Assembly: GCA_008632985.1 (NCBI GenBank)
Contig: QPGO01000075.1
Span: forward strand, 312,517 to 370,572
Direction: 5' to 3'
Origin: Psammoneis japonica
Taxonomy: Eukaryota
DNA length: 58,056 nucleotides
Each line of letters opens with the position of its first letter. The stretch's first letter is position 1. Positions 2,553 to 58,056 of the stretch are shown piece after piece. The notes below the pieces were generated by a model, which searched no databases, was not told the origin of the DNA, and saw only the letters and a program-made list of their open reading frames with translations. The position numbers and the translations under genes were made by a program.

Positions 2553-3749
2553 GGTAATAGTAAGTCTTTTGGTTGTTGTTGATGAGTGACTGTTGTGTTC
2601 GCAACCTTCGCAACAAAAACCATGAAGCTATCGCAAGTGTTGCTTTGCTGACGATGACAGGACTTGAAGGGAATTTTCTTTGGTGAGAAATTTTAAATAA
2701 AAATTATCAGTCATAAGGTAATATATTACAGAGGAATCCCATTCAATTTTTTTAAAATAATTAAGCTACGCGTATTATAATACACGTCATAAATTGCATA
2801 CTCAGCGATGAGAGGTATCTTTTCAATTAAGCCCAGAACGTTCTGCCAGCCGTTGTGGATTACCAATGTTCAGTGTTGCATTATTACATGCAATTTTTCA
2901 TATTTAAAATCTCATCTACAGATTTTAAGGACAAGCATTTTGGCGGGAAAGAGTGCAGGTTGGTCATCACTATAAACAGCATGAGAATTTGCTTGCCTTG
3001 CCCCTGTGTGCTCCACCCTCCACCCGTCATGATTCATGCACCCATTTTGTTAACTTCCAAAGGAGTCATGGGGTCAAGATCCAACAATGGCACAGTCTGA
3101 GATGCCGCACCTCTCAGCACACTTCTCACACTCGCACAGCAACAATGCACTCGGCACTGCTGGGCACGTGCCCCAGCTCCAGAGTTTGCAAAGAGGTCGC
3201 GCAACAGAACATCATCACATGCATCCATTGTGCACACCACAGTGGTGATGGTGTTAGAACATTGAGGTTCAAGGTGGTTCTGGGAGGACACACAGACAAT
3301 GTTGCAACAGCAAAAAAGATTGCTGACCATTGCAAATGACGCCGTGCTGGGCATTTTTATGAGAAAACACACTGGTTTGTTCTCCCCACTTTTTGGCTTC
3401 TGCACCATGTCAACATGGTGGCGTGGCAATGGCGCCAGTGACAGCATGAGACACGCGCATGTTTGCAGCCCATGTGGTGAGCTTTGGAGAGCCCAGGTTG
3501 GTGCGGCAGGTTTGGTGTCAGCAAAATGGCAGCAAGGCTCCAACACAGAAGTCAAAAAGGTGCAAGGGCTGGGAAAACAAGAGAAACCCAAAGGGAAGGC
3601 TGGGAAGTTGAGAGAAATCCAATGCCTGGTTGGTGCAAGTGATCGCAGCATTTGAGCTCACTGAGCTGACACAGTTGATTTGTCAACTTGTTGCTCCAGT
3701 TGAAGGAGTGGCTCTGCCTGGGTGAGATTTTGTGTCACCCTTGTTGAGG

Positions 3750-4194
3750 TGCAACACACAGCTGCTGACAAGAGCCAATGTATCACGGCGACGTGTCACA
3801 GCCTTTAAATGTCACAAAGGGCGTGACAAAATAACCTTTTGTCTGCATGCATGCTGCGTTGTGAATTCACAGCGGAGTGGTGCATCGCAACCACCAGGCA
3901 GGAGGCCAGGGGTTCGAAACCCTGAGTGGGAGTTGTCTGCAGCAACGTTGATCACTGTCGAACGCGCAAAACTCTGTGCAGTTCTGTGTGTTCCTTCGTG
4001 CGTGCCCACACTGTTCCACCAAAACCGTGCAGTGTCAGTGCACGTTGGTAAAGAGCCGCATGGATGCGTGACACATGGGGAGGAGTGCAATGTGCAGCTG
4101 CCAACAAGAGTTGATGTGTCACGGCGACGTGTTACAGCCTTTAAATGTCACAAAGGGTGTGACAAAATAACCTTTTGTCTGCATGCATGCTGCA
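3750..4194 (+). mobile_element. TRIM-like miniature LTR element A (445 bp; 109-bp LTRs at 3750-3858 and 4086-4194)
   Basis: Two 109-bp direct repeats starting TGCAA; polypurine tract GGGGAGGAG immediately before the second repeat; GAGG on both flanks (3746-3749 and 4195-4198, a candidate 4-bp TSD). No canonical TGG PBS seen. Confidence 0.75.
3863..3932 (+). ncRNA. tRNA-derived Pol III promoter cassette (A box and B box) inside TRIM A
   Basis: CAGCGGAGTGG at 3870-3880 (A box TAGCNNAGTGG after TA->CA) and GGTTCGAAACC at 3911-3921 within a CAGGG/CCCTG stem. Acceptor and anticodon stems are poor, so it is not a functional tRNA. Confidence 0.5.
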
Positions 4195-7100
4195 GAGGAG
4201 TGGCTGGCAAGAAATGATCTCTGGAGGACCTTGCTTTGAGGAAGCTGCAAGGGTCCACTGAAAAAGGGTGCAGCAAAGTTGTGTTGAGCCAGGAATGATG
4301 CCAGCATGGGCAAGGACATGGGAATCTTTCAAAAATGACCCGTGAAGCAAAACATGCACAAATCAGCACTTGAGAATGTGCCCGCAGAATCCAAACGTTT
4401 TTGTGCCAAAACTGTCATCTTCTCAAAACTTGTGCAAAAAAGGACTTGACTGCCAACTGATCAGGTGCATTTCTGCAAATGCACTGTTCCAAAACAGTCT
4501 GATCAGTTTGCAGACAAGCCCATTTCTTGCAGAATTAAAACTCATCGAGGGCAGAGGACAGACAGAGAAAATTTGATGTTCTTCTTGGTGCTGGTCTGCA
4601 CAATTTCTGCACATTTGTTGACAACGACTCTGCAGTGCAAAAGATTGCTGTTGGGAGCACATGGAAGCATGAAAGATTTGAGATTGGAAGGAGTGGGTGC
4701 ATGACGCCATTGCTGGGTTGGGATGACAGGCAGATGGGTGCTGCACAGAAACCACAAGAAAGACAAGTGAGTGAATTGGAAGAATGCTTGGGCAAGAGAT
4801 GCCGGCGTTGGCATCTCCGAGGCAGGAAAACAAGCAAGAGGAGCTGGAGGAGCATCCATTGGGTGCAACCACATCAGAGAAGGACAAGTCAGTCTGGCGG
4901 AAATGACATGATTGCGGTGTGAAACAGGGTGTGATCTGCAAGATGCAGAAGGCAAGAGCACTCAACACAATTGTGGAACAGTTGGCAAAGGCAGTCTGTC
5001 ACAAAGTTGAAGCAGTGGCAGAGTTTGCAAAGGTTGCAAAGCATTTGGAAAAATTGTGTGAATGCAGGACAGACTCTGCGTCTTTTTCATGCATTGAAGC
5101 TGCACTGACAAATGCCCCAAAGGCACAGATGGACAGAATTTGTTCAAACAGCAGCTGTGTGGACATGTGCCCCAAATGAGGGTTGCTTCTTGATGCACTT
5201 AAAATCTGGTGCATGACAAAACAAGGTGACAAGAAGGGGAACCTGGCTCTGCTCACACCTCCCTCTGACACACCTCTGGGTGGTGGCACAATGGAGCTGC
5301 AAATGTTCTTCCAAAGTTGAGATGATGTCACAGCCACTGCATTCTTGCCAGCAGGGACAATGCCAGCAGAGACAATGCCAGCAGGACTGCAAACCAAGAT
5401 TGCAGCTCCATTTTGAACTGTTGCTCTTGTTCAATGAGGCAAGCATTGATGGAGCAAGGGAGGTGCAAGACTTGGAGCAGCTGTGCTTGGAGATTCTCAA
5501 TCAGCACAGACAAGAGAGAGACATCTTCAAACTTTGGTCATGTGACAACCTTTTTGTTGGTGCTGCTTTGACCATCCATGATGAGAAGCATCTGTTCCAC
5601 GTCATGCCCCATGCAGTCAAGGTTGGTGCAATGTCTTGCTCCAACAATGATGACAACAAGAGAGAGTTCTGCTCATGTTTCAGCAAGGGCACCCGATGGC
5701 ACATGCTTTGTTTTTCTGCACATCTTTTTGCCAGACCAGAAGCTCAGCTTCAAATTTCCACTTTGCTGCTTGGGCTTGGCTGCGCCCCCAAAACAGCGAC
5801 AGTCCTTGCATCCCCCACAGTTGTCCTCATGCAAGTGAAACAAGTGGATGAACAGTTTGGCAAGACAGCATCCAAACCTCATCTGCTGCCATGTCAGGGC
5901 AAAGGAAACATCAGTGTCCAACAAACAGCAGCATCCACATGGCAGTTGCACATTGCACAGAAACCAGCTCAAGACAATTGAGTTGGGGCATCAGACACAG
6001 TCAAAGACAAACCTTGTGCACCAACTGACAGCAGTCATCTGGGTCCATGTTGCATGCATTTTTGATGGCACCAGGAAAGAAGTCTGGCAACCAACTGGTG
6101 GCCTCTTGTCTTTGCACAAGTGATTGCCAATTTGGTGATGGGATGCTTCAAATTGCTTGCAGCTCATGAAATGCTGGTCCAGCAGGTTGTCACAGGCACC
6201 ATCTTGATTTTTGAACACATCATTGCATGCCTTTCTCATCTGACAATTAACCCCACACTGCTTCAACTCACCAGCATCAGAGACAGGCTGCATGGAAGAA
6301 ATGCCAACCACTCTGTTGTCATTGCTGTTCTTGTCATCAGCATGGAATGCACAATCTCTGTCTTGGTTTGAAAAATGTGTCATGATGGCAGCAATGTCAG
6401 GGTGGATGGCATTCCCAAATGCTTTGTTGTGGCAGGGACAGGTGGGATTGGCAAAAGGGTGCTGCCCCACCTGGGAACAAATGCACAGTTTCACCCAGAA
6501 TGCCAGCGGCAAAAGAAGTGGCAATCATTTCATTGATGAACGCAGGATTGGGCCATTGGTCTGCAGACTTGGGAGCAGACTTTAACTTTGGCAGGCAGGC
6601 AGCTTGTGGAATGGATGGTCTGCTGTGTCCATCTTCACTGTGTGTCCATCCATTTGATTGGCAGCCAGTGAATCTGACATTGCAGCAGTTGGTGGCCTTC
6701 TGGCACACAACTGTTTTTCTGAAATTTTTCTTTGGTGTTGGATTGAATTTGCAGCCATGCTTGATGCCCTCATGGATGCCTCACCAACTGACATCTTTGG
6801 CAAGCACAGAAGCACTGTGGTTGCCATTGTGCATCACAATGTGTTCATTGCAATGTGATGGTGTCTTTGGATTGCACAAGAACAAGGGAGGGGCAACGCC
6901 ATGGCACATGCACAGTTGCTTCATGGTGTTCATCAAATGACTTGTGAGACACTGGCCATGGCCTTTCTCACTGCTGCGCAACAAGCAGGATTGAAGTTTG
7001 GGCTGATTTGGTGCAAACAGCATTGGCGGGGAAAGTGCAGTCATCTTCATGGACAGCTGCTTTGCCATTGGTGCTGTCAGCAACAACAGAGGACACACAA

Positions 7101-10100
7101 AGTGTGAGATGCCATGTGACAGAATGCACCACAGTGCATGTGGGTGCTGTTGGGGTGCTGGTGTGCAAACTCACTGCATGACAATCATTTGCCGCATGGT
7201 CAATGATGTTTGGTTTTTGTTTGTGCACTTGTTGAGCAGGAGGGCTTGGGTCTCTCAACTCCATTTTTTTCCAACTCCAAGCACTGGGCTCAAATTTTCA
7301 TCAATTTGTTGAAAATGAACAACACAAAATTGCGATGTTGTTGAGGTTGAATGCAACACAAACTTGTGCTGATGTTCATCACATGGACCAGCACAAATTT
7401 GACAGTCAATCCAGGAAACACTCAACGCACATGACCCAGGCATGATGCGACATTGTTGCCCCCCACCTGGGACAGACATTGTGCTTGCCATGCATTGCAT
7501 GATCAACATCAAGTGAGAGCATGATGGTGGCAAACTTTTGAGAAAGATTGATGATTGCCATCATCATTGTGCTTCAATTGCAGCATGCAATGGTTCTCAT
7601 TTTTGTGTGTGATCAGGTGCAACATGGACAATTTTTGTGTTCAAAAACAAACACTTGCAAACAAACATTGCTCAAATGCCACAGCAATTTTAGGACAAAC
7701 ACGGGGGTGACCCATCAGTCAGGATGCAATGACGTGCATTGAGACAGGGTTTAAACAACCAATGACACTGGCACAATTGTGGGAGCTCCATCTTGATGAG
7801 TTGCCCAACAACTGCACAGCACTTTAAAACAACACAAAAATGACACAAAAGTCATGCAGAAATGCACAAGCATGACATGTGGCATGATTTAAAGAACTGT
7901 CAATGTCACAATTCAGCAGTGCAAGGTCCCACCTCTCTAGAGCTGGAGTGCATCAACTGCCAACAAGCAACACAAAAGGCCACGGAGCATGTGGAGAAAC
8001 ATCCAAAGGACAAGAAAAGGGAAAAAGGAAGGCAAACTTTTTGCTGAACATGAAGCACAATGAAAATGAGAAAGAAGCAGAGCAGGAGCAACAGCCTGAG
8101 CTGGGCATCTGCTGTGATGAAATGGACATCACTGGGTGCAGCAGCACAGACATGCTTGGAAACATTGGCGCAAATCTTGATGACGATTGTAAAAAGGCAT
8201 CAACAACTGATGCAATGAAGCAGCTAAAGACATGGAAGGAGGAAAATCTTTGACACAATGCTTGCACATTTCATGGCAGAGGATTTTCACCAAAGTTTAG
8301 GGAGAAAAATGTCCAAGCAGTGGTGAGTGGCTTCATGAGTGCCTGACAAAAAATTGACAAAAAAATGCAAACAAACAAAAAACTGAGGCAAACAAGGCAT
8401 TGCTGAGTTCCTTGAGACTGCAGAAATCACCCAAGACACTGCATCAATGTGGGCAGTGACATTTCCATGGAGGACTTCAAGATGCCCACCAAGAACCCCA
8501 TCAAGGCAAAAGAGATGGCAGTTGCTCGCACAAAGTCAGATGATCAAATGCTGATTTTCTTCTTTTGCTCTGCAAGCTCTCCACCAGCAAAGTTTTATGA
8601 CAAGAACACCTTCAAAGCTCCAGGCAATGAAGGCAAAGACACAGACAACATTTGCAGAAAAGAAACCTTTGGTGACAAATGAGTCAACCAGTTTGTCAAG
8701 GATGCTCCAGTCAACACTGAACTTCAACATGACTGAGCTGCATGGAAGAACAAGTGGAAGGTCAAGACAGCCCCAGCCAACAAGGAAAAGATGCTGAAAA
8801 ATCCCTCTGTTCCAACACCCTCCTTCTCCACTGGCTCTAATTCTTTGATGGTCTCATCCCTTTTTGTTGTCATCCCCCTCTTCCAACAATGTGAATGTGA
8901 TGGATCTTGCTTGCAGCCTGCCCACCCCCAGTGCCTGCAGCTCTGATGACTTGTGCAAGAAGTTTGCCAGTGCAGCACCACCCAAGAAGAACAAAGAGTG
9001 CAGCCCCAAGCTTTCTGAGGAAGAGCTGATGGGTGCTGAAGCCAGCTTTGTTGACATCAACATCACCAAAGCTGAGACACCCCAGCAAGCCTGCCACTGC
9101 CAAGAAAAGTGTGGATGAACCCATGCGGGCAACCAAGTTTGGACAAGAAGACCCCTCACATCAGGAAGTCTGTGCTGCCCAGCAGGATTGGCCCCCAGTC
9201 CAAGAAACTGATCAACCAGAACAAAGGAAAAAACAATGAGCCAAAAGTGTTGAAAACCATGCCAAATGCAGAGGAGAAAGCCAAAGCTCCAAAAACTCCC
9301 ACCCACCAGCACCCAGCTCTCTGTGGAAGCCAAGGTCAAAGCAAAACAAGACAAATCTGATCTAACCCACACAGCCCTGCTGCTGGCAAAAGCAAAACAA
9401 CCAAGACTCAAGCAAAGAAAGACTGCCAGCGACAAGCCAAAAACCCTTGTGAACTGCACAGAAGCTGCAAAAGCTTGACCCAGCTGCAAACAAATGTTGA
9501 AAGCTCAACCCAAGCCTGTCCAAGCTGTCAAAGCTCCACCCAAGTCCAACCAAAACCCTCAACTGATGCCCCTGTGGCACCTGTCTTTGCCTCCAAGTCC
9601 GCTGACAGTGGCAAAACCATTTGCAACCTCTGGGCTAACTTTGCAATGAAAATTCCACCCTTGGACAAGCTGCCAAAGGACGAAAACCCCCAGAAGTCTC
9701 TCTTGGGAAATTTGTTGGTGCTCTCCTGAAGAACTGAGCTTGTGATCTTGCTGGTGGCAGTTTTGCTCTGATGGCCTGGACCAGCAATGCAAAAGACAGC
9801 ACCGTCAGCCAAACAGCTGCCCAAGCTGCCAGCTTCCCAAGTTGAAGAGCTTTCTCTGTGGCACCATGTCAAATCAAACACACTCAATGCCAGCCAGACA
9901 GATGTCTGCACAGGTGTGAACCCAGGTGTGCTGCAAGCAACAAGGATGTGCTCCTCAAGCCAAAAGCAGCACTGCAGAGTGCTGAGTTCAACAAAGGGGG
10001 GCTGTGGTTCATGTGGCAGCACTGCAATCTTGACCCCACCAAGCTGCAGAAAGAAATTGGCAACAGGTGCTCAAGATTCCCATTTTGAGCAGTTGAGAAG

Positions 10101-12436
10101 AAACTGGAAAGTCATGAAACTCTCTCCAACTCCACAGCCATCCACCCACAGCCCAATGTGCTGCTCCACATCATTTGTTGTGCCTGCAATGTGGATGCCA
10201 CTTGACCAATCCTGCAAGTCTTGTTCTCTTGGTCCAACCCTGGCCATCCCTTTGGTGCCATTTCCAGGCTTGTTGACTCCAACAGCAGTTTAGAGACCTC
10301 ACAAAGTGTCTGTGGTGCAGCCACCAAGGTGCTGGGAGGGAATTTGCAATCCTCCCACAACAGCACTGAATCTGATCAAGCCAGCCAGCCACAGGACAGG
10401 CCAGTGAGGGTGAGCAGTCTGTGCAGAGAAAGGCCACATTGGGCAGCCACATGGTCTCTTGAAGAAGCAGAGAGGCCATGGAGAAAAAACAAGAGGACTT
10501 GATGGCCCCCAAACAAAGCTGCAAGACCAACAAACAACAACAAAAGATCCGCAAAAACAATGCAGACAGCAGCAGTTGTGGGGCCATCTGCACTCATGTC
10601 AGACTCAAAACCACTCTTTTCATCAATGGACTCCTGGACAATGAAAACAATCCAAGAATGAAAGTGTCCATGGTGCCATCCAAGAAAAACAGGTCAATGT
10701 GTCTGCATGAACAAGACCAACCATCACTGGAAAACAGTTCCTTGTGGGCAGCATCCTCAAGCATGGTTCAAAGAATGCCAGGAGCACCGCCCAAGTGTGC
10801 TGGCTGCTTGCAACTTTCATGATGCCTGTTCTTCTTGCTCTCAACCAGGGGGTGCCATGACAATGAGCACAGGGCAAGCCCAGCCACTGAGCAACTGAAA
10901 CAGGACAGAACCCTGCTTGTTTGACCTGGCACAGAGGAAAGGCAGGTGTCACTCTTGCTTTGAATTGCAGCGGTGCATCATCCCTGCAAAAGTCTCACAA
11001 CCGTGCTTGCAGCACAGTCTGCACTCAATGCTGGAGGCACTTCCAGCAGCACAATTGTGACAGATGCTCATGCCACAGGTGTGCATGGCTTTAAGATCTT
11101 GCCAAGGATGCAGAGGCCTGACACAAGAAGAGAGATCAAGTCATTCCAACCAGGGGCATCAACAAGAAGGACAGCATTTGCTCCCACAAGCTTTGCTCAG
11201 CTTTTGAAAACACACAGCTGCACAAACTTTTTTTGGAGGAGTGCAGAGCTGAGTCCATGCCCCCCACATGATTTCCTGGGTCTGCCTCAATTGATGAGTT
11301 CTGGGCCACAAGAGGCATCTTCATAGAACAGGGGGGCATGCTTCCATTTGGATGAGGATTCCTTGGCTCAGGGCACAGACTGGCATGGGGGTCAGTGCAT
11401 CACTCCAAACTGTGTTTGGTGCTCCACCTCCTGGGGTCAAATGACACCCATCATGATGGCTCAGCCAAACTGAATGACATGTTGACTGTCAACCACTTCA
11501 ACAAAAAGTGCAAGCAACATGTCATCAAAATTAATCTGGTGAGTCTCAGCATCAGGAATGAGAAATGTGGCACTTGTCCCCTGGTTTCATCACAGATTGA
11601 AGAGCTGGAGACTGCTGACAAGCTGCAAGTGGAAGAACTGTGGTTGGCAGACCAGAAGTGCAGGAAACCACAAGTGGGGGGAAGCCATGATTGCCAAAGT
11701 TGAAGAGGGCCTCAAATTGTGTTGAGCTGCATCCAGCACTCCTCATGAGGCAGCACAAACAACTCAAGGTCAGCTCACACAAGATTTGCTGCTTGGAGAA
11801 AAAAACACAAGGACCAAGGTGCACACATGCACCAATGCTCAAGCAGCTTCAAGAGGGACTCTCCCTTTGCCAGTGCAAGGAGTGCAGAGCAGCAATTGTG
11901 AGGGAGGCAAAGGATCACCAAGCAAAATTTCTGGAGAGTCAAGCTGAAGAAATGGCAAATGCCTGCAACTGAATTGCAGAAACCCAGACCTGTGTTCTCA
12001 AACAAAAAAAGCAGCCTTGGGAGCAGAGCTGATGAGCCAGCTGCATCTCAGGGAAACTGTTTGCTGAGAAAGCCCAGACAAGAATCCTTGTCAACCAAGA
12101 GAATGGACCTGATCAAGAAGCAGCAGAGAAAGAGGCAACAAAAACTGCCTCAATCAAATGTTGGGAACCAAGCTCATGCAAAAGCTGCTGGTCAATGGCA
12201 CCCAGTTCTCAGGAGCTGGCCAACAAGCCAAAGCTGTTCTCAATGGATCATGCTGCAACAGAGGCCATTTAAACTTTTGGATCTGCACCTGAGCTCAATG
12301 CTGCTTGTTCCAAGGAGGAGTGCCAGTGCAGCACTGTTGACTGTTGAAGCTGGTTGGCAGAGAGGACAATGTGGTTGCAGTTGATGCAGCTGAGAATGGC
12401 GTGGGTGGGGAAATTTAAAGGGTTCATGTTGAAGCA

Positions 12437-13300
12437 ATGCTGGAGGCAGAAGCATCAGCAGATTTGGCACAAGGCATTGACTTGGTGCATCTTCCACTTT
12501 GCAGCAATTTGAGTGCTCCACCTGGTGTGCCATGTTGTGGTGCATTTCTTGCATTCTTGGAGATGCACTTTTCAAGGTGTGGATGGAGCAAAGGTGATGG
12601 TCAAGCACAAGTGCAAGAAGCTGCACTTTGTTTCATGACAAGCACACTTCTAGCTTGGGATGAAAGGAACCCCAACAAAGCAAAAGCAACCCCAAAGCAG
12701 CAAGTCAAGCTCATTTCTTTGCCTCCAAAAGAGTTGTGTTGGCAAGTTCAAGCCATGTTTGTTGCACTCGGAAATGAAGTTGACTCAAAACCTGGTGCAC
12801 CACTTTTCAAGAAAATGATGTCAAAGAAGGCAGACAACTTTTTAAAAGAGATGCTTGAAGCAGATTGTTGCTCTGACCCACCAGGTTTCAGCTGCTGCTG
12901 CTTCTGGTGCTTGACCCTGACAGCAGCCCAGTTGTTGACAAGCACAGGCTGAGGTTGCTGTCTTGGACCACAGCTGCACAGCAGTTGACATTGAGAGCAG
13001 CCACAAGTGCTGAAAAATGCCACATTTAGACCAGTTGCCCAGCTGGTCCAAGTGGCAGCAAAAAAAATCCATGGCTGCCAGCAAATGGGGTGCTGCAATG
13101 TGTGGCAAACCAACAAGGTGGGCTTGAGTCACAGAGCTCTCTTGCACCCACCACATGTGGTGGCCAGTGATGTGCTGGACATGCCAGTGAGAACTTTGCA
13201 GCAGCATCCATTTGCTCAGAAGAGCTTGACACCACACTTTGGGCCTGAATGGCTGAGATTCCCACAAAAAATCAAGAACAACTTTTCCAGTGACTTGAAA
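12437..13300 (+). pseudogene. Degenerate ORF of a putative DNA transposon (SDPPG-motif protein, possibly DUF6729-associated family)
   Basis: PLFKKMMSKKADNFLKEMLEADCCSDPPGFSCC followed out of frame by VDKH and IESSHK; resembles from recall a repeat-encoded protein family once Cys is read back as Tyr. Needs an HMM search. Confidence 0.35.
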
Positions 13301-38351: not shown

Positions 38352-38469
38352 ATTTTCTAGTGAAGTGCACTGCGGGTTTTGGTTGTTTTGAGTGTAACGC
38401 GGTTTTCAGTTATTAGTGTGTTGTCGCTACGACTATTATCTATTTATTATGCTCATTCTAGCTCTAGTG

Positions 38470-44263: not shown

Positions 44264-44620
44264 TATTGATGGTTTTCGTTTCGTGTTTTGTGTCTTTGCA
44301 GCTTGCAGTTTCGATGTGTTGGGTGTGCGTTTGTGCTGAGCGGGCTTCGGATCGCAAAATTGTGAGGTGCACGTTTCGTGACGTTGTCGCTTGTCGCGCG
44401 CCATCCGTCAAAAAGTTCAATGACGCGCTGGTATCTGGTATGTTCTCTACTTACGTACTGTGTACGTGCCACGTATGTATGCGTGCGTGTTGAAGATAGT
44501 GATCGACACAGTGTCGTGGCAGATTTTTAGCTCGAATGCTACTTATCAAAATAGCTCGTGATTTCTCTCGAAAAAAATTTCGCAGTGCCCTCTCTTGCAG
44601 CAGCTGCTCTCTAGAGAGTA

Positions 44621-47600: not shown

Positions 47601-49526
47601 CCTTGTCATTGGAACTTTCTCAAGGGGAGTCAACAGGTCCAGACAATGACGTTTGTTGCTTTTCCCTGCACTGCAAAGCTGACCAATCTCTCTCAGGTGG
47701 AAAGCATGCACAAAATTGTCCACAGACAAATGGCAGTCTGTGCTGGATCCAGCAAGAAAGTTTCCAAAACATTGTCGGCAAAGTGAAGCTTTCACTTGCA
47801 TGGACTTGGCAGTGTTTTGAGTTGGAGCAATCTTTTTGCATGAGACAAAACAAGAGAGCAGACAGAACAGGTCCATGTCATTGTTCAATGTGAGTGTGGG
47901 TTTAGAGTGCCAACAGAGGTTGCAGTGTGGACAATGACAAAGTGCAGATTGCATGAAATGCATTTTCTGACAGAATGAGCCAAAATGCCAAAGATGCTGA
48001 TCTAAGAACAAGAGATGGCTTGTGATGTGCAACTCCAGAAAAATTCAGCAAAGACACATGCCAGTGCTCTTTTTCAGGTCGTTTGCTCGATGATTGCCCT
48101 CCAATTGTGGCATCCTCAACAACAAACGGCGGTGACAAGACAAAGATGTGGACCTGCGCAGAGACCTCATTCACACCTTGTTGGTGCAAAACCTTTGAAG
48201 CACCAGGGAGTGCATCCATTGTCAATGGGGTCAACATTGACGAAGCTCTGTGCAGATCCATTTGGATGAATCCCAACTCTCGAAAGCGGAACTTGCCATT
48301 GATCGGCTGCAGACACATTCCAGACATGGTGGGAATCTGTGTGACATTGGGCCCATGGAATTCCATGTGCAAGCTCAGCAGTAAAACCATCAGGCAATTA
48401 ATGCGCCAATGATCGCCAACAGAAAATGAGGCAATTTTGCGAACGCACAAACTCGTCCATGATTGAAGTGCATCATTTTTTGCTCAGCCAGGTGCACTCT
48501 TCAGACATTGAAGAATGCACCTGGAGCATTTGTGTTCCTGTGATTTTGTCAAACAAAACATCTGGGGTTTCGCAAAACAGCAAGTCTGGAACAATTTTTT
48601 GGAAGATCACACGCAGAAATGTGCACGCGAAATGTGCGACGGATGAAAAAAACAATTGTGTCACACGTCAGCACTGCGAGCTCCCACCTGCCAGGGCTGG
48701 GACGCATCTGCAGTTGCACGAAAGTTGTTGCGTTTTGAGCTGTGCCAGCCAAAGAGGGGAACTGTGCAATCTGGCTGCGGCTGGGTGGGATCACAAACAA
48801 AGCCTTCAAGGCGACACAGGGTGCAGCCGTTCTGCTGTGTGGGGCCGCCGTCAATGTGCTCTCCTGAGTCACTGTCCTGGACAATGTCGTCAACTTCTGT
48901 GTGCCTCTCAGGCTGTGTTGTGATGAAATTGTTAGAAAGCTGGTCATGTCACCAAGCAAACATCGGAGCGGTGCTGCGTGGTTGCTCCTCATGTGGACTG
49001 AAGATGTGGCCATTGAAGACAAACTCACGGCATCCATTTTTCGACGTTCTTGCGGTTGCTTCCAAAGACAAAACATGACTTTCAGGAACGGAATTCCAAC
49101 ATGGATCTGATGATGCAAAATGGTCCTGCAAGTTCCCGTTGCACCATGTGTGCATTGGAGTTGGGCCATTGGCATCGGGACAGACATCACTCGCAAGACA
49201 AAATTTGTGCAGTTTGTGACTTTCTGCCAAAAAAGTTTTGCCGTGCTTGCAACACAGCAACCAAGGGCAACTTTGGACAATCAAGGTGAGTGCAATGGAG
49301 GGGCTCCACCCACCAACTCTCATTTGTTTTGCACTCCTTGTGCACCAGAGGTCTGACATGCATGTCAAAAGTTTTTGGACAGTGAGCTGTGTTTTGGACA
49401 AGAATGAACGGCTCTTGCTCACCTGCTGAGTGTCCAGTGCAGCTCAACTCCACTGCACTTGATGGGCTCCAGTCCCAGGTGGTGACATTGGGCCCACAGA
49501 ATTTTGCGTGCGAGCTCCGCAGCAAA
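44621..49526. mobile_element. TpA-depleted block of degenerate repeat DNA, block 3 (host of the copia insertion; continues at 57349-58056)
   Basis: TA nearly absent; internal duplications at about 45431-45560/45623-45731 and 47040-47280; 48428-48708 is homologous to 57396-57675. Confidence 0.75.
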
Positions 49527-49802
49527 TGACAGAAATTGAAGGCAAATGGCAAGAATTCAAACAATGACTCCTCACTGCTGTCTAAATGGCAGATGAGTCT
49601 CCGCTCAGAGACTGTCACAGGAGCCGAAAGACGTGCAAGTCGGTGCAATCGGGCTACTGTCATTATTCTTGTGAGCCTTGTGGCTCGAAAGCAAACTACA
49701 TCGCGCGTGAACGCGCGGAACTAAAGCACACAAAACTGTGCACGGTAAACTAAACAGCGCGCGATGCTTCGCGCGCACCCAAATCCTGTTCAAATCCTGT
49801 CA
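49527..49802 (-). repeat. 3' LTR of the copia element
   Basis: 262/276 identical to 56357-56632 by manual alignment, no indels; preceded on the minus strand by the PPT. Confidence 0.95.
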
Positions 49803-52800
49803 CTCCCCAGTTTGCTTGAGGAGCCACAGAAACAGATTCGACTTCAGATGGAATGAAGTTCCAGAACATGAGGGGGCGGAGAAGGTCCCAGATTTGGGAG
49901 CAACCCCAATGCTTGCTGAGAATGTCAGCAGGGTTGCGGGAGCCTTCGATGAAGTGGAACTCAAGGTAACCAGAGGCAATTGCCTCACGCACACGATGGA
50001 ACGATAGTGCGGTGTGTCGTTTGTGTAACTTGGAGTGCGGGATGGTGGCACTGTCTACAACTGACTTGTTGTCACCGAACATGTAACTAACGTTACGGAT
50101 CGGGACGCCAAGGTGGCGCAGGGTGATGCGCAGGTCGACAATCTGCTCAACACAAGTCCTTGCGGCAACAAATTCAGACCCGCAGGTCGCAGTCTCCACG
50201 GTGGCTTGTTTCTTAGAGAACCAATCAGCCGGGAATTTGTTGAGGAAGTGGAGCATTCCCATGACAGAGCGTCCGGTGAGCATGCAATGGTGCAAGTTTG
50301 CATCGACGTAGTGGGTGGCAGTGACGAACTCGCCAAGGGGCGGTGGAGCGTCCTTCGGGATCATCTCTTCTGCTTCACCATGCACGGAATGCATCCATTC
50401 ATAGGCCGGAGCAGGGAGATCTGAACAGTCGGGCTCTTCCGTGCGAACGCGGAGAGCACCGTGTCGCATCTTGGAGAGGTGCCCACAGACGCGTTTGGCA
50501 CGATCCAAGTGGCCTTGACGGGGCGCAGCTCGGAAGCTAGAGAGTGACATGACGGCCGTGGTAATGTCAATTCGACCAAGGGACACTGCCCATTGGAGTG
50601 AACCAACAAGAGACTGGAACTTGTGAATGCCATCGGGTCCCAGCAGTTCGGAAGTGTCCAGTTCGGGGTGGTCACCCTTCTCTAGAGGTGACAGGGCGTT
50701 GGTGGGGTTTCTCCCCAAACAGTCGGGCACAGCTGTCGACCATGCGCTCGATGTACTTGCGCGGAGACAGGCACAAGGTTCCGTCGGGTTCCCGGGAAAA
50801 GTCGCAACCCAGATGGAACTCAATGGGTCCCGCCCTTGAGCTTGAACTTGTGCTTTTCCGTGAGAGTGTCGACGAAAGATTGAGGGTCCTTCATGGCAAT
50901 GGCGAGGTCATCCACATAAACGGCAATGTGTTCACAGTGGTCGCCGTTCCTGCGCATCCAAATGTCGGGTTCGGCGCGGCAGGGGAAGAAGCCTTCAGCT
51001 CGCAGGCAGTCGGCGAAGCGCTCGTGCCAGCGGAGACCGGAGCTGCGCAGTCCATGCAGTGCCTTGTGGATGACAAGGATGTGTCCTTCGAGTTTGCCGA
51101 ACTCGGGTCCAGCTACAATGTAAAGCTTCTCCTTGGTGGTGGCTTCAAGGTGGGCATTGCCAATGTCGGTGGCCCATGTCTCCAACTCGTTGAGTTCGGC
51201 CAGGAAAATCATCAGCCGAAGGCCACGGAGGGAGACTACTCCGGAGCAGACACTGTCGACAGGTACGTCCGTGAGGTGCCCGTCGGCTACGAGTCGTGCC
51301 TTGTGGCGACCGTCGTGTTTCACGTCGTGCACCAGGTGCACTCGGATCTTCTTGTGTCCCGCAGGAGGAGTGGAAGACTTGAAGGGCCCGCAGTCATGGA
51401 AGACTTCGTATTCGTCGAGTTGGTCCATCTCGAGATTAGTTGCGTCTCCCCACTTGCGGTTGCCGTTGCGTTTGTCTGGTGACATGGCGTGTTTGCAGTT
51501 CCGGGGAACTTCGCATCCACACTTGTAGCGAGGTGCAGTGCGGAAGGAGCGAAGCTTGGCTTGGTTGGCCATGCGAAACAGCTTCTTTTGGCGCCTCGCA
51601 ATGGTGCGGAACCGCTTCCAGCCATCCGTGTCGAGGAGTCCGTTCTCTCGTGCATGGATGGCACAGGTGATGGGGTCGTCCTTGGCGATGATGGCAAGAG
51701 GCTCGGACGTGATCTCCCCACTTTCCCATTCAAGCATGATGTTGTAGCTGGAGCCTTTCCAGGTTGGGTCGTGAGGCTTCAGAGGTCCTTCGTGTGACAC
51801 GATGCGTCGAAATTTCCAAACAGTGGTGTCTTCGTCTTCTTGCTCAATGTGATTCATGATGTCATTGCAGGCAAGGACTTCCTCGTATTCGTCATTGTTG
51901 ACAGAGCAGACGAACCCAGTGAGCTCGGGATTGCCGTTCACTTTCCATTCGTGGTCTTCGACGGCCTTGACGATGCGAGCTCTGTGGCGTTGTCCGTCCT
52001 CTTGTGGCTGCATGAGGAAGGTGCGTCCAATGATGTCTTGCGGATCGAAAACTGGCATCTTGGGTGTCCTGATCTCCCCATCAGGAGAGTCGACGGGGTT
52101 GTCGTCATGGCGAGATTTGATGATGGGTTCAGGTGGCTCCCCATCAGGAGGATCAAGACGCAGGTTTCAAATGGCAGGATCAGGGGTGGCGGAGCGGATG
52201 TTGGACCGGTGGAGGATTTTCTGAGTCTCATCGGACAGAATCTTGAAGGTCATCTGGTGGCCAACGTGCTCAGCAATGCCAACGAAGCGTCCACGCAACT
52301 CACGGGATTCGGATGGCCAATCGGAGTCATCGAGGTGGAAGCACACGGGTTCCCACCAGTGAAAGCGAAGCAATGGGCTGATGTCCGGGGTGGAGCCAGT
52401 GAGAGTCTCGAGGGGCGTGCGCCAGTGGAGACGTGGGGACGCTGTGTGGTTGAGCATGAAGCACACGCACATGAGCGCCAGCAGCCATGTGTGGGCGGGC
52501 GAACCAAAGCGATCCATGACAGTGTTCGCCATGCGCTTCACGGTCTGGTGTTGATGCTCGGCAAAGTTTTGGTGTTGCTGGTGAGGCTCACTTTGCCAGC
52601 TAGAGATGAAGAGGGCGCGCAGGATCCCGAGCACTTTGTGGCTGATCTCAACTTGAGCACGGTCGCCAATGAGTTTGGACGGGGCACCACGTTCACGGAT
52701 CTGATCCTCGAGTGTGTTGACAAACTCTTTGTCCGTCTTAGTGCCGTAGACGTCAGTGACGGTAGACTCGGTGCCAACAAACAGTTGGGTGCTGGTGCAA

Positions 52801-55415
52801 CCAGAGTCGACGGCCGGGGTGTCGGCATGAACGGTGTCAGTGGCGACAGGCTCGTTGCGGCGGTGCACATTAAGGGCGGGGTTGGGTGATTTGTGGGCCT
52901 TGCGAAGGTGTGTACCGGCGGGCATGCGGGCGTACTGCGTGGTGCAGTCAAAAGTACGACGGACCGTGTCGGCAGGTAGGAAGCCAAAGCAAGGCCGAAG
53001 AGACTCGAAGGGGGGGTCCTTGGGCTGTACAGTGCGCTCCGGAGGTGGAACGTCATCGCCCTGGGGGCCAATCGCATGCAGATGACACTCGTAGAACACG
53101 TCGTCGTTCGGAATGAGGTGATCATCGAGGGCGGACGCGTGATCGGCAGACAAGGAAGCGGACATGATGGTCTCGTTGACAACGACACGATGACGGTGGT
53201 TGCCGCATTCGTCAAATAGGTTGGCAGTGGGATCGTCCTGCAGGTCAGAGATCGCGTCGCACCACTGGTCGTCGTCAGTGACAGAGTGATCGAGGACGGA
53301 AGGGTCCCATGTGTCATCACCGGTGAGGATGACATGGGGCAGGGTGTCCCATTCGGCGTCAGTGTGAGGTCGCATGGCAACACAAGGCAGGCCAGCCTTG
53401 ATGTCAATGGGGATGACATGGCCATCAGGAGTGGCAATGCGTTGCAAGCCGTTGGGCACCTTGACAGAGCGATCGTTGACATCCTGTTTGCACCATTCGA
53501 GCTGGCCGCAGGAATGGATGGTCTTGCCCTTGCCCGTGTGTGCGCACTGATGGAGGATGGCGATGACGGGACCATGCTGGGTCTCAACAACGGCACCAGC
53601 GGTGACAATGGGGATGTCCACCAATTGATGATCGTCAATGCCCTGAACGTCGACTTGGCGAGAGGTGCATGCAATGACGCGAACGTCGTCGCCAGCAATG
53701 CCGCCGTTGGCCCCACGATCGACTAGAGCGCCAGTGCGTGTGGAGCGATGAGCAGAGGCAGAGCAAATGACATTGTGGTTGTCAACGCAGCGGCAAGTGC
53801 GGCCGTCAAGTTCCATGTCATCTGCAGAGGCTGGCGGGGTAGAGGAAGCGGCGGATGGCCCCGGTCGACTGGCATTGGGGGCTTGGTTAGGAGACAACAG
53901 ACGTTGCAGATCACCGGGTGGCAGTGGCTTGCGCTTGGTGAGGTGCGCCAGGATGGGATTGTCCGAAGTGGCGTCCACATGTGGAGCGGAGTCACCAGAG
54001 TCAGCAGGAGTCGTGTTGGACAAGTTGACATCACCGTCACTCCCAAGGTGTTGGTCGTGAAGGTTGGCCGTAACAGACTCATGGCAGTCACTGGCTCGCG
54101 GGTTGCGGGGAGGTGGACGAGAATGCTCAAGGATGATCGCCTTGGAGGAATCGGGCAACGAATCCCAGAGCCGTTGGTGGTCGGGAGGGAGACGTCTCCA
54201 TTGGACACCGGTGAGGCTGGGACCGCGGGTGCAGGCAGCATTGGCTTGAAGGACATCAACGTCGCTGTCAATGTCGTAGAACACATCGTCGGACGGTTCC
54301 TCGGAGCAGACGTCGTGTGCGTGTGTGGCGCGTCGGGGAGCTCGAGGTGTCGTCTTGGGTTGAAACGTGCTGTCGCACTGAGCTGCCGCGGAGAGGAGCA
54401 AACCACAGTGTTGGTCGCATGTGAGGCTCTTGCCACTCTGCGTGCGATGCTGATCAGCTTGGTTCTTGACAGCACGGAGTTCCTCGACAGGGTGCACGGC
54501 ATTCTCGAGCATGACGCGCTTCTGTCCTTCAGAGAAGTGGTCACTGGCCGGGATGAGTGCCTCGCACTTGCGCAGCTGATCTTGCCAATGAAGGATGAAC
54601 CCGTGGGTCGGACCTTTCCAAGTGCCATCACCAAGACGTGCGGTGGTGAGGTGCGTGAGCAGGGTGGAGGACTCGACAGATGCGCGGGTGGAGGCAAGCG
54701 CGTGCTCAGACAAGGAGCGGCAGACAGTCTGTGCGTCAGAAGACCCCACATTTTCGCGAATGAGAGCCTTGCCCTTGTCGGTGAGAAGGATGCGTTCGAA
54801 GACGGCGAACATGTGCTTTTGCTGTTCAGCAAAGAGCAGTTTGTCTTCGGGGCTGGTCGGTTTGTACGACGAGTCTAGAGTGCACTCGACGTCTTGGGCA
54901 TGGGCTTGTGCCACAAGTGAGGTGTGCCAAGTGTGCCACTGCTTGTCGGATTTGAGAGCCGTGAAAGCGGTGGGATCACGCTTGATGCCTCGCTTGAAGT
55001 CCCGCACCGGGTCACGTGCCTTGGTCGGGTTGGTGACATGTGGAGGTGCAAGGGGTGAGCTGCCGATGGACACAGAAGACATGCAGTCGGGGCTGAGGCG
55101 GCAGGCAAGGAACTCGTCATGCGTGAACAAAGAGGAGTCGTTGGCAACGTCAAGACCTTTGTGTGCTTTGACAATGTACAGACTGACCAGTGCTGCTAAC
55201 ATGTTCTTATAACCACGGGGCAAAGGGGTTGCATTAGTGCCGTTGTCGCACTCAAGCGAGTCGATTTGGGACGGGATGAACGTGAACAGTTCCTGATGCG
55301 AGTCCATGCCATCTTGGGCCAAAGCCAAACGAAGAGGACTCCCAGCACCTTGGGCAAGCACGGTTCCAACCACATGCTCGAAACCATCGGTTTGTTGCTG
55401 ACGAGTGAGAACCAT
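49750..55415 (-). pseudogene. Copia gag-pol polyprotein, inactivated (in-frame TGA at 52167-52169, frameshifts near 50830 and 50700, many Tyr->Cys/His)
   Basis: Protease LVDRGANGG; integrase VATDTV, IGDRAQVE, SEPHQQHQNFAE; RT HKARLVA, DIGNAHL, ALHGLRSSG, YVDDL; RNase H YVDANL, GSEF, GDNKSV, NPADILSK. Confidence 0.93.
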
Positions 55416-56341
55416 GGCAGACAAAAGTGGTGTCAGGACAATCAATTCTGGTTGGGAAGCGAAGGTGGACTCGAAACTTGGGTGAGAATGGACTTGACTT
55501 GAAGTGGACTTGACTTGAAATCTTGAACTGTCTTAAAATCAGAAGTCGCCGGGCTTTGTTGTCCCGTTCGTTGTCAAGTGCTAAACTTCCTGTCCGGTCC
55601 GTAGAGTTGTGCCGGCACGTCCGAACCCGCAGCTGGCGGCGCTTTGGGTTGCTTGCGAGCGGAGTGGCGGGTTGCAAACCCCTGCAGGCAAGCTGACCAG
55701 AGGTGGACAAGACCCCCGAACCGTTCTCATTTTATGTCGGTTGGATTTCCCGATCAGGCTGGCCAGTTGACGCAGGCGTCAGGCGCTGTGGACGAACGAA
55801 CAAACGCGGGAAAGCACCCTCGCCCCAACGCAGGCTGCAATCACGACCACCTGCTCTCACAGTCGTCCTCGTGGACCTGGCAGAACTGTGGAGCACCAGC
55901 AGTCCGGGGTGGATCAGGTGCAATGGACTCGGTGTGCTTGTAGAGTGGCAGCAAAACCGCAGTCCGAAGAGTGGACAAAGGTTCTTGGCCGTGAAGACAT
56001 GCACACATGTGTGTGTGTCTTCAGCGACTGAGATCCTTGAATGTGCGGGGTTCTTGACCGTCAACCGAGGAACAGGCACACAAAGGGATGTTGATCAAGG
56101 ATGGACTTGGACGTGACCGTTGAATGTGAGTCTTCAGCGACCAAAGGCAGCACAATCAATCCAGACATCCAGCGGCAAGGAGACTTGATGGTGACGTTAA
56201 CTTCCTGCCGATGCCCTGGCATTGAATGCGCGCAGACTTGCCGACACATGTAGAACACATACGGAGGTCCACGCAGAATTGAAATGGCATCGTTGGCAAA
56301 TCAACGACGACGATGGCGGTTGCTCAATGGGTTGACAATGA

Positions 56342-56356
56342 GCAAGACTGTCAATC
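56342..56356 (-). promoter_or_regulatory. Putative half-tRNA-type primer binding site of the copia
   Basis: No TGG after the 5' LTR; the plus strand reads GCAAGACTGTCAATC, an anticodon-loop pattern GA-CT-NNN-AA-TC, which would be GACTGTTAATC (Asn, GUU) before a TA->CA change. Confidence 0.45.
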
Positions 56357-56632
56357 TGACAGAAATTGAAGGCAAATGGCAAGAATTCAAACAACAACTC
56401 CTTGCTGCTGTCTAAACAGCAGATGAGTCTCCGCTCAGAGACCGTTGCAGGAGCCGAAAGACGTGTAAGTCGGTATAATCGGGCTGCTGTCATTATTCTT
56501 GTGAGCCTTGTGGCTCGAAAGCAAACTACATCGCGCGTGAACGCGCGGAACTAAAGCACACAAAACTGTGCACGGTAAACTAAACAGCGCGCGATGCTTC
56601 GCGCGCACCTAAATCCTGTTCAAATCCTGTCA
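56357..56632 (-). repeat. 5' LTR of the copia element
   Basis: Direct repeat of 49527-49802 with TG...CA termini. Confidence 0.95.
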
Positions 56633-56692
56633 TGACAGGATTTAAACAAGATTGACCAACTCGATTAAATCCGACCCATCAACCTGAAAAAT

Positions 56693-56756
56693 TGCGATAC
56701 CCAGGAATCGAACCTAGGTCCTCTTATAACCGGTTACCGTCTAAACCATTTACCGC
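56693..56756 (-). ncRNA. tRNA-like Pol III unit in the 3' LTR of TRIM B (64 nt, no canonical anticodon arm)
   Basis: GCGGTAAATGGTTTAGACGGTAACCGGTTATAAGAGGACCTAGGTTCGATTCCTGGGTATCGCA: acceptor-like GCGGTA/TATCGC plus A, A box, T arm CTAGG-TTCGATT-CCTGG, then ATTTTT terminator. Confidence 0.7.
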
Positions 56757-56857
56757 TTTCTTCAAACTGACAGGCTTTTTGTACATAGTCACACATGTTT
56801 CAGCCAGAGAGTGACATACACCTTTAATTCTTCTTAGAATTCTGTCACTCCCCATAT

Positions 56858-56893
56858 GTCACGAAGCTGTCTGACGTCACGAAGCTGTCTGAC
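56858..56893. repeat. Perfect 18-bp tandem duplication GTCACGAAGCTGTCTGAC x2 in the TRIM B interior
   Basis: Read directly from the sequence. Confidence 0.9.
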
Positions 56894-57193
56894 GTTCCTT
56901 TCTTTGGACAATGATACTTCTCACAGCTCCCCTTCTACCTGGGCCACATTTTTCTGCACATGTCATGACCTCCCCGGCGAACTGATAATTGGGCGGCCAT
57001 TCCGGCCTCGGCATCCCTAATAAGAGCACTATGTGCATCGTCGGTCTGTCTCACCGCAGCCTCTCCTCAGTTTTAGAGTCATCTTGAAGGAGCACACACA
57101 CCTAGGTTCAAATCATCAACGGTCCTCGCACCATGACAGGATTTAAACAAGATTGACCAACTCGATTAAATCCGACCCATCAACCTGAAAAAT

Positions 57194-57257
57194 TGCGATA
57201 CCCAGGAATCGAACCTAGGTCCTCTTATAACCGGTTACCGACTAAACCATTTACCGC
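57194..57257 (-). ncRNA. tRNA-like Pol III unit in the 5' LTR of TRIM B
   Basis: Same as 56693-56756 except the A box reads TGGTTTAGTCGG; followed by TTTTT. Confidence 0.7.
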
Positions 57258-57757
57258 TTTCTTCAAACTGACAGGCTTTTTGTACATAGTCACACATGTT
57301 TCAGCCAGAGAGTGACACACACCTTTAATTCTTCTTAGAATTCTGTCAGTAAAATTGTTCAGCAATGGACACATGAATGATCACCAACAGAAAAAGAGGC
57401 AATTTTGCGAACGTGTCTCCTCCTCCACACTTGAAGCACATTCTTTGCAGCATGCCCGGGTGTGTTCTTCAGACATCAAAGAATGTGCCCAGCGCATTTT
57501 TGTTGTCACAAATGCAGACAACAGAAAGCCTTCAGCTTCGCAAAACAGGCAGTGTGGAACAAATTTGTGCAACAGAACATGCAGAAATGTGCGCGCAAAA
57601 CATGCAACGGATGACAAAAAACAATTGTGTCACAGTTCAGCAGTGCGAGGTCCCACCCAGAGCTGGAATGCATCACTTGTCAAATGTGGTGTTTCTCTTC
57701 CTCTTGGCTGGAGGACAGCTCCAGCTCTCCAGAGGTGGTTGGTGTGTGTGATGTGGT

Positions 57758-57758
<1 letters not shown>

Positions 57759-57792
<34 letters not shown>
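57759..57792. repeat. (CA)17 microsatellite
   Basis: Read directly from the sequence. Confidence 0.95.
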
Positions 57793-57794
<2 letters not shown>

Positions 57795-58056
57795 AGAATG
57801 CGAGCGCGAGAGTTGGTTTTTCGGACGGTTGCCACGATTGATTTTTGGTTTCTGCGCAGCATCCAGCACTGTTTCCACTGGACTCAACTGCACACATCGA
57901 GTTTTTTTGGTTGAGGCTGTTTTGCACTGCACCCTTTGGAGTTCGGAGAAAGGGAAGACACCAGGCAATGTCCCCAGCGAGTGAAGTTCAGGTTTGCTTG
58001 AGCCGCTGGCATGGTCGCATTTAACGGCTTCAGTGCTCATGGTGTGCGACTCGCTT

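Follow-up and report, generated by a model that had tools for sequence, protein, structure and literature searches.

To our knowledge, the heritable hypermutation defences against mobile DNA known until 2026 were cytosine-based, namely the repeat-induced point mutation (RIP) of fungi and APOBEC-type editing. RIP changes C to T, mostly at CpA, and thereby creates TpA. Here we describe a 58,056-bp stretch of contig QPGO01000075.1 from Psammoneis japonica (assembly GCA_008632985.1, positions 312,517 to 370,572), referred to as the window, in which long blocks containing transposon and repeat DNA have lost TpA and are rich in TpG and CpA. They include a Ty1/copia retrotransposon with two long terminal repeats (LTRs) and a relic of a Chapaev-type DNA transposase gene. 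With a probability of roughly 0.78, we consider that these blocks were rewritten after insertion by two transition processes, one of which is specific for TpA and like that of the alga Bigelowiella natans.

The latter is the closest described system: integrated DNA of nucleocytoplasmic large DNA viruses (NCLDV) and virophages undergoes TpA-specific hypermutation in B. natans (Mettrop et al., bioRxiv 10.64898/2026.01.13.699255). According to the accessible part of this preprint, to which all statements on B. natans below are limited, 231 of the 302 nuclear single-nucleotide mutations in mutation-accumulation lines fell in two integrated viral regions. In fact, 230 of these 231 were A-to-G or T-to-C changes, and the GC-biased ones all lay on TpA. 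The rate was about 6e-7 per site per generation, approximately 1000 times the background, and the process was seen in 11 of 15 lines. Moreover, 124 clusters of windows poor in TpA and rich in CpA+TpG were reported, and genes with low TpA were enriched in reverse-transcriptase and DDE-endonuclease domains. An ADAT2-like DNA adenine deaminase was proposed to be responsible, an ADAT2 homologue was found, and RIP was described as a C-to-T process (10.64898/2026.01.13.699255).

The window resembles this system in several respects. A:T pairs are changed to G:C at TpA, with TpG or CpA as the product according to which strand is hit; the affected DNA, as far as it is recognisable, is foreign or mobile and has normal flanks; and the LTR pair of the copia element differs by 14 transitions and no transversion, with the direction TA to TG/CA at the five sites that keep TA in one copy. 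The frequency of TpA is 0.0018 in the low-TpA coding subgroup of B. natans versus 0.0020-0.0031 in the three blocks designated B1-B3 below. On the other hand, B. natans is a rhizarian alga with viral targets, whereas here the host is most likely a diatom, to judge from the best named matches, and the targets are an LTR retrotransposon, a Chapaev-type relic and dispersed repeats. The depletion here is saturated over blocks of 5-13 kb and coincides with loss of CpG, while the accessible part of the preprint mentions neither CpG nor diatoms. The rate was measured there in mutation-accumulation lines, whereas the evidence here is comparative and yields a lower bound of about 100-fold from one LTR pair. 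An earlier note on this DNA knew of no such system in diatoms; with the preprint of 2026, TpA hypermutation of the same kind is now described in B. natans. For diatoms, literature searches, which did not cover the supplementary tables of the preprint, returned nothing on either depletion of TpA or its hypermutation. The window would represent a process of this kind in another lineage unrelated to the first, and the first diatom case, and would show that the TpA process is not a one-species oddity.

Two cytosine-based processes are also close to the pattern. RIP shares with it heritable hypermutation by transitions, inactivation of mobile DNA, sharp edges and a dinucleotide skew. However, TpA is here destroyed instead of created and the GC content is not lowered (0.47-0.48 in the blocks, similar to the flanks), and RIP was rejected on these grounds. 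Methylation-driven decay of CpG agrees with the observed/expected ratio (O/E) of CpG in the old blocks, 0.02-0.15, and with the matching gain of TpG/CpA. Yet it explains the CpG half only, lags far behind the TpA process in the copia element, and occurs elsewhere without loss of TpA. The segments of the window are listed here with observed/expected counts of TA and CG, the expected counts being calculated from base composition.

2976-15740, no strand: B1, saturated TpA- and CpG-depleted DNA, delimited by dinucleotide counts and TA edges; TA 40/854, CG 100/736
19435-29700, no strand: B2, saturated TpA- and CpG-depleted DNA, delimited by dinucleotide counts and TA gaps; TA 21/690, CG 66/593
44621-49526, no strand: B3, saturated TpA depletion, delimited by dinucleotide counts and TA edges; TA 15/342, CG 68/273
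49527-56632, minus strand: Ty1/copia LTR retrotransposon (RVT_2, E 2.4e-22; LTRs); TA 74/337, CG 504/554
57349-58056, no strand: B4, saturated TpA-depleted DNA that runs off the window, a copy of the repeat at 48359-48708; TA 1/45, CG 24/43 (counted over 57354-58056)
1-2900: control DNA; TA 115/202, CG 178/160
15800-19400: control DNA; TA 158/260, CG 185/192
29881-44620, no strand: internal control, ordinary gene-bearing DNA of normal dinucleotide content; TA 566/973, CG 908/853 (counted over 29900-44500)

In sliding 1-kb windows, TpA O/E is 0.00-0.15 and TG+CA O/E is 1.7-2.1 over approximately 3000-15500, 19500-29500 and 44500-49500, whereas the intervening and flanking DNA shows 0.4-0.8 and 0.9-1.3, respectively. 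B1, B2 and B3 combined contain merely 76 TA versus 1886 expected (whole-block O/E 0.02-0.05), and the longest TA-free runs measure 2068, 1864 and 1519 bp, the longest of all being 26824-28892 in B2. The edges are sharp to tens of bp: TA is dense until 2973, 19433, 44619 and 57350, and becomes dense again at 15743 after B1 and at about 29686-29880 after B2. Since the edges are so sharp and the counts so far under expectation, the depletion reported by the earlier note, which put it at over half of the window, is confirmed by sliding windows, block counts and edges alike. Its third block, 44621-56632, has to be divided, because 44621-49526 is indeed saturated whereas 49527-56632 is the copia element, which has lost only part of its TA and has normal CpG. 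That AA and AT are undepleted holds for AA/TT (O/E 1.15-1.38 in the blocks versus 1.1-1.29 outside) but not for ApT, which is mildly lower in the blocks (0.5-0.9). With AA undepleted, WA mutagenesis of the Pol eta type (A-to-G at TA and AA), which had been named as a candidate, fits poorly and was rejected.

The surplus of TG/CA had been ascribed to loss of TpA, which is right for one part of it, while CpG decay had been overlooked: B1-B3 combined contain 234 CG versus 1602 expected, and the gain of TpG/CpA is reciprocal. When the O/E values of the control regions (TA 0.58, CG 1.05, TG/CA 1.13) are applied to the block expectations, the estimated balance of B1-B3 is about 1020 TA lost, 1450 CG lost and 2520 TG+CA gained. 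By this estimate, CpG loss contributes about 60% of the TG/CA surplus, more than TpA loss. When 96% of the TA and 90% of the CG of control DNA were converted in a forward simulation, TG/CA O/E reached 1.88-1.94, versus 1.87 observed. The CpG loss is incomplete in places: CpG is only half depleted at 3000-4600 in B1, and in B3 it is strongly depleted to about 47500 and about half depleted at 48000-49500. These two stretches and the copia element are TA-poor with CpG O/E of 0.4-0.9, whereas none of the 1-kb windows is CpG-poor and TA-normal. Therefore, TA loss precedes CpG loss.

The copia element gives evidence on timing and rate. It is GC-rich, and its LTRs are direct repeats of 276 bp with TG..CA ends, located as follows.

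49527-49802, minus strand: 3' LTR (left in the window), 276-bp pair, 94.9% identity
56357-56632, minus strand: 5' LTR (right in the window), 276-bp pair, 94.9% identity

By the established mechanism of retrotransposition, an element inserts with two identical LTRs. Those of the copia element now differ at 14 of 276 positions, by 14 transitions and no transversions, all of them in aligned pyrimidine-purine (YR) steps, and the pair is 100% identical when reduced to purines and pyrimidines (RY alphabet). At four sites one LTR reads TG where its partner reads CA, at five TA stands against TG or CA, at one CG stands against TG, and no change occurs elsewhere, so that 13 of the 14 transitions lie at TA-type sites. 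Because the LTRs were identical at integration and differ at TA-type sites, these changes arose after integration. Both LTRs share 6 TA and 19 CG; accordingly, 9 of 15 visibly TA-derived sites differ between them versus 1 of 20 CG sites. About 200 positions outside YR steps show no change at all, which puts a 95% upper bound of about 1.5% on pair divergence there. Approximately 4 further TA sites were presumably altered identically in both LTRs and are invisible. We thus estimate about 19 ancestral TA sites per LTR, of which about 55% are altered in each, and a rate ratio of TA to other sites of at least 100.

The element itself is defective: a TGA interrupts it in frame at 52167-52169, and a frameshift separates the open reading frames (ORFs) of reverse transcriptase and RNase H. 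In the three ORFs of the element, 1074 of 1121, 445 of 448 and 294 of 385 residues are covered by homology to relatives. The gag-integrase and RNase H ORFs have no Pfam match at E<=1, and gag and integrase are recognised by homology to relatives only; the reverse transcriptase matches Fistulifera solaris, a diatom. A tblastx search of the window against 79 copia loci found no copia remnants outside 49775-55451. The short tblastx matches, despite their very small E-values, seem to be artefacts of the summed statistics.

The relatives of the element show what has been lost. We compiled a family consensus of 744 positions at which at least 70% of at least 25 environmental copia relatives (up to 79) agree. 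Among 38 tyrosines conserved in the family, the element now has 7 Y, 14 H, 14 C, 2 F and 1 W. Changes are thus found at 31 of 38 conserved Tyr versus 49 of 706 other positions, the loss is highest at Tyr codons (82%), and His or Cys accounts for 28 of the 31 changes. A TAY codon becomes His by T-to-C and Cys by A-to-G, and the split of 14:14 means that there is no coding-strand bias. The reverse-transcriptase domain, compared with 120 database proteins, gives the same picture, with 14 conserved Tyr now being 4 Y, 5 H, 4 C and 1 W. All 79 metagenomic copia relatives have a TA O/E of 0.49-1.02 with no 1.5-kb window below 0.39, and none of the 79 is TA-depleted; therefore, the TpA loss is not a trait of the copia family. 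Some of these loci (L068, L009, L002, L017 and L062) combine a CpG O/E of 0.05-0.24 with normal TpA, and therefore CpG decay occurs without TpA loss. From these sequences, CpG-only decay of the copia family is common in nature. Two of the 120 database proteins, the copia reverse transcriptases P0151 and P0155 from other sources, have His or Cys at 7 of 14 and 9 of 19 conserved-Tyr columns, whereas this fraction is at most 0.105 in the remaining 118. They have the lowest Tyr and the highest His+Cys content of the 120, and they belong to different families with 60% mutual identity.

The same signature is found in a DNA transposon remnant in B2.

27337-29798, plus strand: relic of a DUF1280/Chapaev-type DNA transposase gene (phmmer, blastx)

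Its ORF at 27328-28614 has 47 relatives (best E 2.7e-45, phmmer), and blastx homology spans 27337-29798. DUF1280 was found at E<=0.001 in 8 of the 10 relatives tested, in 6 of them above the curated cut-off; as far as the accessible part of the source goes, this domain corresponds to Chapaev transposases (Majorek et al., PMC3985635). None of the 429 codons of the ORF encodes Tyr, versus 1.3-3.8% Tyr in 12 relatives, and the two columns in which Tyr is conserved have become C and H. Since a relic of a DNA transposase is affected too, an RNA intermediate is not required.

Ordinary self-BLAST of the window revealed 6 repeat pairs only. Self-comparison in the RY alphabet, which is blind to transitions, was required to detect a dispersed repeat common to B1, B3 and B4, at 7849-7963, 14174-15211, 48312-48710 and 57327-57683, with scores of 125-389 bits versus 95 for the best shuffled control. 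When copies of repeats are aligned, there are sites that read TG in one copy but CA in its partner, a state that ordinary mutation almost never gives. Fifteen such sites were counted between the B3 and B4 copies, 15 in the 14174/14838 pair of B1, 6 in the 45453/45624 pair of B3, and 4 in a 113-bp repeat of B1 (3746-3858/4082-4194), whose copies differ by 15 transitions and no transversions. The central claim of the earlier note, a process altering TpA to TpG/CpA in mobile or repeat DNA, is therefore borne out by the LTR differences, the replacement of Tyr by His/Cys, the TG-versus-CA copies and the TA-normal relatives. In copy-versus-copy comparison, TA to TG/CA dominates the spectrum, and the copia consensus is not TA-free, as Tyr stands where the window element has His/Cys. 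Its further claim that every depleted block holds transposon or repeat DNA stands in part: the copia element, the Chapaev relic of B2 and the dispersed repeat of B1, B3 and B4 all lie inside sharp-edged blocks in this window, but most of B1 and B3 is without recognisable origin.

The process acts site by site on both strands. TG and CA counts are nearly equal in the blocks, and their order is random, with runs-test z values of 0.92, 0.07 and 0.06 for B1, B2 and B3, so there are no strand-coordinated tracts as from processive single-strand deaminases. ADAR- and APOBEC-type editing also leads to enzyme-driven transitions that accumulate in mobile elements, and ADAR prefers a 5' U. However, the changes made by these enzymes form strand-coordinated clusters before integration, with APOBEC acting on C, whereas those in the window are unclustered, strand-symmetric and made after integration, in a DNA transposon as well. 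ADAR-type hyperediting was rejected given these z values of 0.06-0.92, the differences between the LTRs and the affected transposon relic. Survival of TA depends on context. Relative to the control it is 0.55 in TTAA, 0.33 in CTAA/TTAG, 0.05-0.08 in ATAA and GTAA, and at most 0.01 in ATAC, CTAC, ATAG, GTAC and ATAT. Of 71 residual TA, 12 lie in TTTAAA, and 4 of the 6 TA common to both copia LTRs lie in TAAA.

The change of TA to TG or CA makes no stop codon and destroys every Tyr codon, and therefore leaves long open, dead reading frames. Stop triplets in B1-B3 amount to 97 TAA, 32 TAG and 1353 TGA. With TAA and TAG gone, long spurious ORFs arise and transposon genes are hidden from domain searches, and such ORFs will distort gene and repeat annotation of affected genomes. 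Observed maximal ORF lengths in the window are within those simulated by chance, except the 429-aa transposase relic. The ORF at 46994-47890 (299 aa), which had no match in a homology search, has a length within chance for TA-free DNA (simulated maxima 224-268 on average). Another ORF, at 14980-15762, had a best score of 0.80 in an Atlas search, which is uninformative.

Adjoining the copia element is a second element with LTRs that has not undergone the change.

56633-57348, minus strand: TRIM-like (terminal-repeat miniature) LTR element, 716 bp, LTRs of about 215 bp, TG..CA ends

It is TA-rich, and its LTRs, about 500 bp apart, are 99% identical, with 13 TA shared and 2 differences (one transversion and one TA/CA). 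It has a CTCCCC tract beside the LTR as in the copia element, and is probably a non-autonomous relative mobilised by the copia family. The element may simply be young, that is, it may be either too young or not yet targeted. As for the 'repeat-targeted' of the earlier note, if taken in the RIP sense of triggering by homology or duplication, this nearly identical pair is duplicated DNA that has kept its TA; what the window does show is that the loss stays within transposon or repeat blocks. The composite of both elements is flanked by GCAAA at 49522-49526 and GTAAA at 57349-57353, the right flank lying beyond the TRIM-like element. We read these flanks as the two copies of a 5-bp target-site duplication, now set apart by a single TA/CA change. 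The one duplication spanning both elements suggests insertion as a unit or at the same junction.

The mechanism that we propose is as follows. The blocks, transposon and repeat DNA most likely lying in the diatom nuclear genome, would be subject to a faster process that changes TpA to TpG or CpA, that is, A:T to G:C at the A of either strand, on integrated DNA. This process, as the data above show, works site by site after integration without strand preference or tracts, stays within the element and spares TTAA/TAAA; its rate is estimated to be at least 100 times background. A slower process would be the decay of CpG to TpG/CpA, as expected for methylated transposons; diatom transposons are CpG-methylated. 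Both together would bring the palindromic YR dinucleotides near zero and double TG/CA. Recruitment would be through whatever marks silenced mobile DNA, and we infer that an enzyme so recruited is responsible and serves genome defence. A TadA/ADAT-type adenine deaminase acting on DNA is the leading candidate, to which we tentatively give rather less than even odds. In the natural tRNA substrate of TadA/ADAT, the edited A is preceded by U in the anticodon loop.

Several points weigh against this account. The rate argument comes from a single LTR pair, and the function in defence is inferred solely from the confinement to mobile DNA. The spectrum does not separate A-to-G from T-to-C on the other strand, and therefore the data do not favour adenine deamination. 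The B3 and B4 copies differ by 43 transversions in 351 columns, which makes the blocks old, and saturation of old blocks alone would not require a very high rate. Not one of 149 ORFs (>=90 aa) from the saturated blocks reaches a curated Pfam cut-off, the best match being DUF1280 with 22.3 bits versus a cut-off of 25. No recognisable transposon gene was found in B1 and B3 by Pfam searches of the block ORFs or by homology and Atlas searches, and the mobile origin attributed to these two blocks would rest solely on the shared dispersed repeat. GpC O/E is 1.2-1.6 in B1-B3 versus about 1.0 outside, whereas simulation of the two processes gives only 1.05, so the GpC excess is not explained by the TpA and CpG processes. 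Finally, the public run X1, used below to check the sequence, may stem from the sample that was used for the assembly, and no sequencing platform is recorded for it.

Among other explanations, a lesion on the thymine side, which would be a different mechanism for one and the same phenomenon, is regarded as unlikely. A TET/JBP-type dioxygenase or a similar enzyme would oxidise T at TpA to 5-hydroxymethyl- or 5-formyluracil, which would pair with G and lead to T-to-C; 5-formyluracil does mispair with G. Acting likewise on 5-methylcytosine at CpG, this chemistry could connect both depletions, as each depleted step is a palindromic YpR whose pyrimidine bears or is able to bear a 5-methyl group, and each ends as TG/CA. 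Double-stranded, methyltransferase-like recognition would also agree with the strand symmetry and the independence of sites. However, the two rates are uncoupled, given the 9 of 15 TA-derived versus 1 of 20 CG sites that differ between the copia LTRs, and other copia loci lose CpG without TA loss. Still somewhat less likely is that no dedicated enzyme exists and that a TpA lesion goes unrepaired in silent heterochromatin, for example because a repair pathway is excluded there, leading to slow passive decay. The age of B1-B4, with the 43 transversions in 351 columns, would allow this, and the blocks coincide with CpG-depleted, presumably methylated DNA. But 13 TA-type transitions against none at about 200 non-YR positions of the LTRs, a ratio of at least 100, is far over known context effects, and neutral-looking intergenic DNA beside the blocks keeps a TA O/E of 0.5-0.8. 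Moreover, as far as the accessible preprint goes, no more than 11 of the 15 B. natans lines had the process switched on, which speaks for regulation of the activity.

RNA editing before reverse transcription, native composition and artefact are unlikely as well, and each of them much more so than the two explanations above. A-to-I editing of transposon transcripts by ADAR- or ADAT-like enzymes, fixed by reverse transcription, agrees with the preference for a 5' U that RNA adenosine deaminases typically show, according to the accessible part of the B. natans preprint. The differences between two LTRs of one integrated element contradict such editing for the copia element; the DNA-transposase relic and non-coding repeats are affected too, and A-to-G equals T-to-C on the coding strand (14:14) without strand tracts, which together make it very improbable. 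Slightly more remote is the view that foreign or satellite DNA makes up the blocks and had no TA and CG to begin with, by selection or native composition. For most of B1 and B3 an ancestor sequence is lacking, which would leave room for it; wherever it is testable, it is contradicted by conserved Tyr replaced by His/Cys, TA-normal relatives and copies that disagree as TG versus CA, and the target-site duplication reads GCAAA on the depleted side versus GTAAA on the other.

To an equally small degree we credit an artefact of sequencing, base-calling or polishing at modified bases, for which it could be said that transposons are often heavily modified and that modification-dependent miscalls are known for nanopore. 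In run X1, 97% of the sampled 31-mers of 22001-32000 are present, and contigs built from exact 31-mers cover 18928-29766 in four pieces of 977-5727 bp with 7 differing letters. Word depth is 60-66 in B2, no different from that on the flanking genes (53-60). Contigs of exact words this long do not come from noisy reads. The read check proposed by the earlier note, carried out here on read-derived contigs, came out in favour of the TG/CA sequence of B2, which these contigs reproduce. If a modified palindromic site were misread on both strands, the reads would be a mixture of CA and TG and the contigs would break; P0151 and P0155, from other sources, carry the same change of Tyr to His/Cys, and the Illumina-based experiment in B. 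natans, as accessible, shows that the process exists. Nine differences to X1 are listed in 19003-29766, of which 2 are TA in the window versus CA/TG in the run and a further 4 are TG/CA in the window versus CG in the run. Because 6 of 9 are of these kinds, both site classes are still polymorphic. Two other runs, X2 and X3, have little or no cover of B2 and give no evidence either way.

Rewriting after insertion by the two transition processes, as proposed above, would go beyond the accessible part of the preprint in several properties. The changes are made after integration, strand-symmetric and unclustered, they spare TTAA/TAAA, and they are independent of and faster than CpG decay. The window presents saturation over tens of kb together with a young LTR element captured mid-process. 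A broader view, to which we give slightly less than an even chance, is that diatoms and chlorarachniophytes share, or converged on, a heritable base-editing defence that erases TpA from new mobile DNA at 100 or more times the background. Its enzyme may be an adenine deaminase of the TadA/ADAT kind that acts on DNA, or one that modifies thymine. If this holds, the enzyme should be findable by comparing genomes with and without the signature, and such a presence/absence comparison is possible, as 79 of 79 environmental relatives are without it and P0151 and P0155 are with it.

The internal control DNA includes a MutS2-type gene.

38473-41622, minus strand: MutS2 gene (MutS_V, E 6.1e-29)

Its window ORFs contain MutS domains III and V, and homologues add a Smr domain. 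The best matches of the MutS2 ORF have 67-76% identity; among the named matches, a record labelled Sro54_g..., which we take to be from Seminavis robusta, a diatom, has 67% and brown algae have 45-47%. No match is identical, so the genome is not that of B. natans, and it is apparently missing from the protein collection searched. Nothing connects the MutS2 gene with the hypermutation. The summed word depth of X1 rises to 123-195 at 15001-16334 and 18336-19002, versus about 60 on the flanks, so B1 and B2 probably have repeated sequence at their edges. Scans of the window for tRNA genes and against Rfam gave no match each, and Tandem Repeats Finder reported 7 short arrays only. The sole N of the window, at 45452, lies within a perfect two-fold duplication of 21 bp at 45432-45472 and looks like an assembly join rather than biology.

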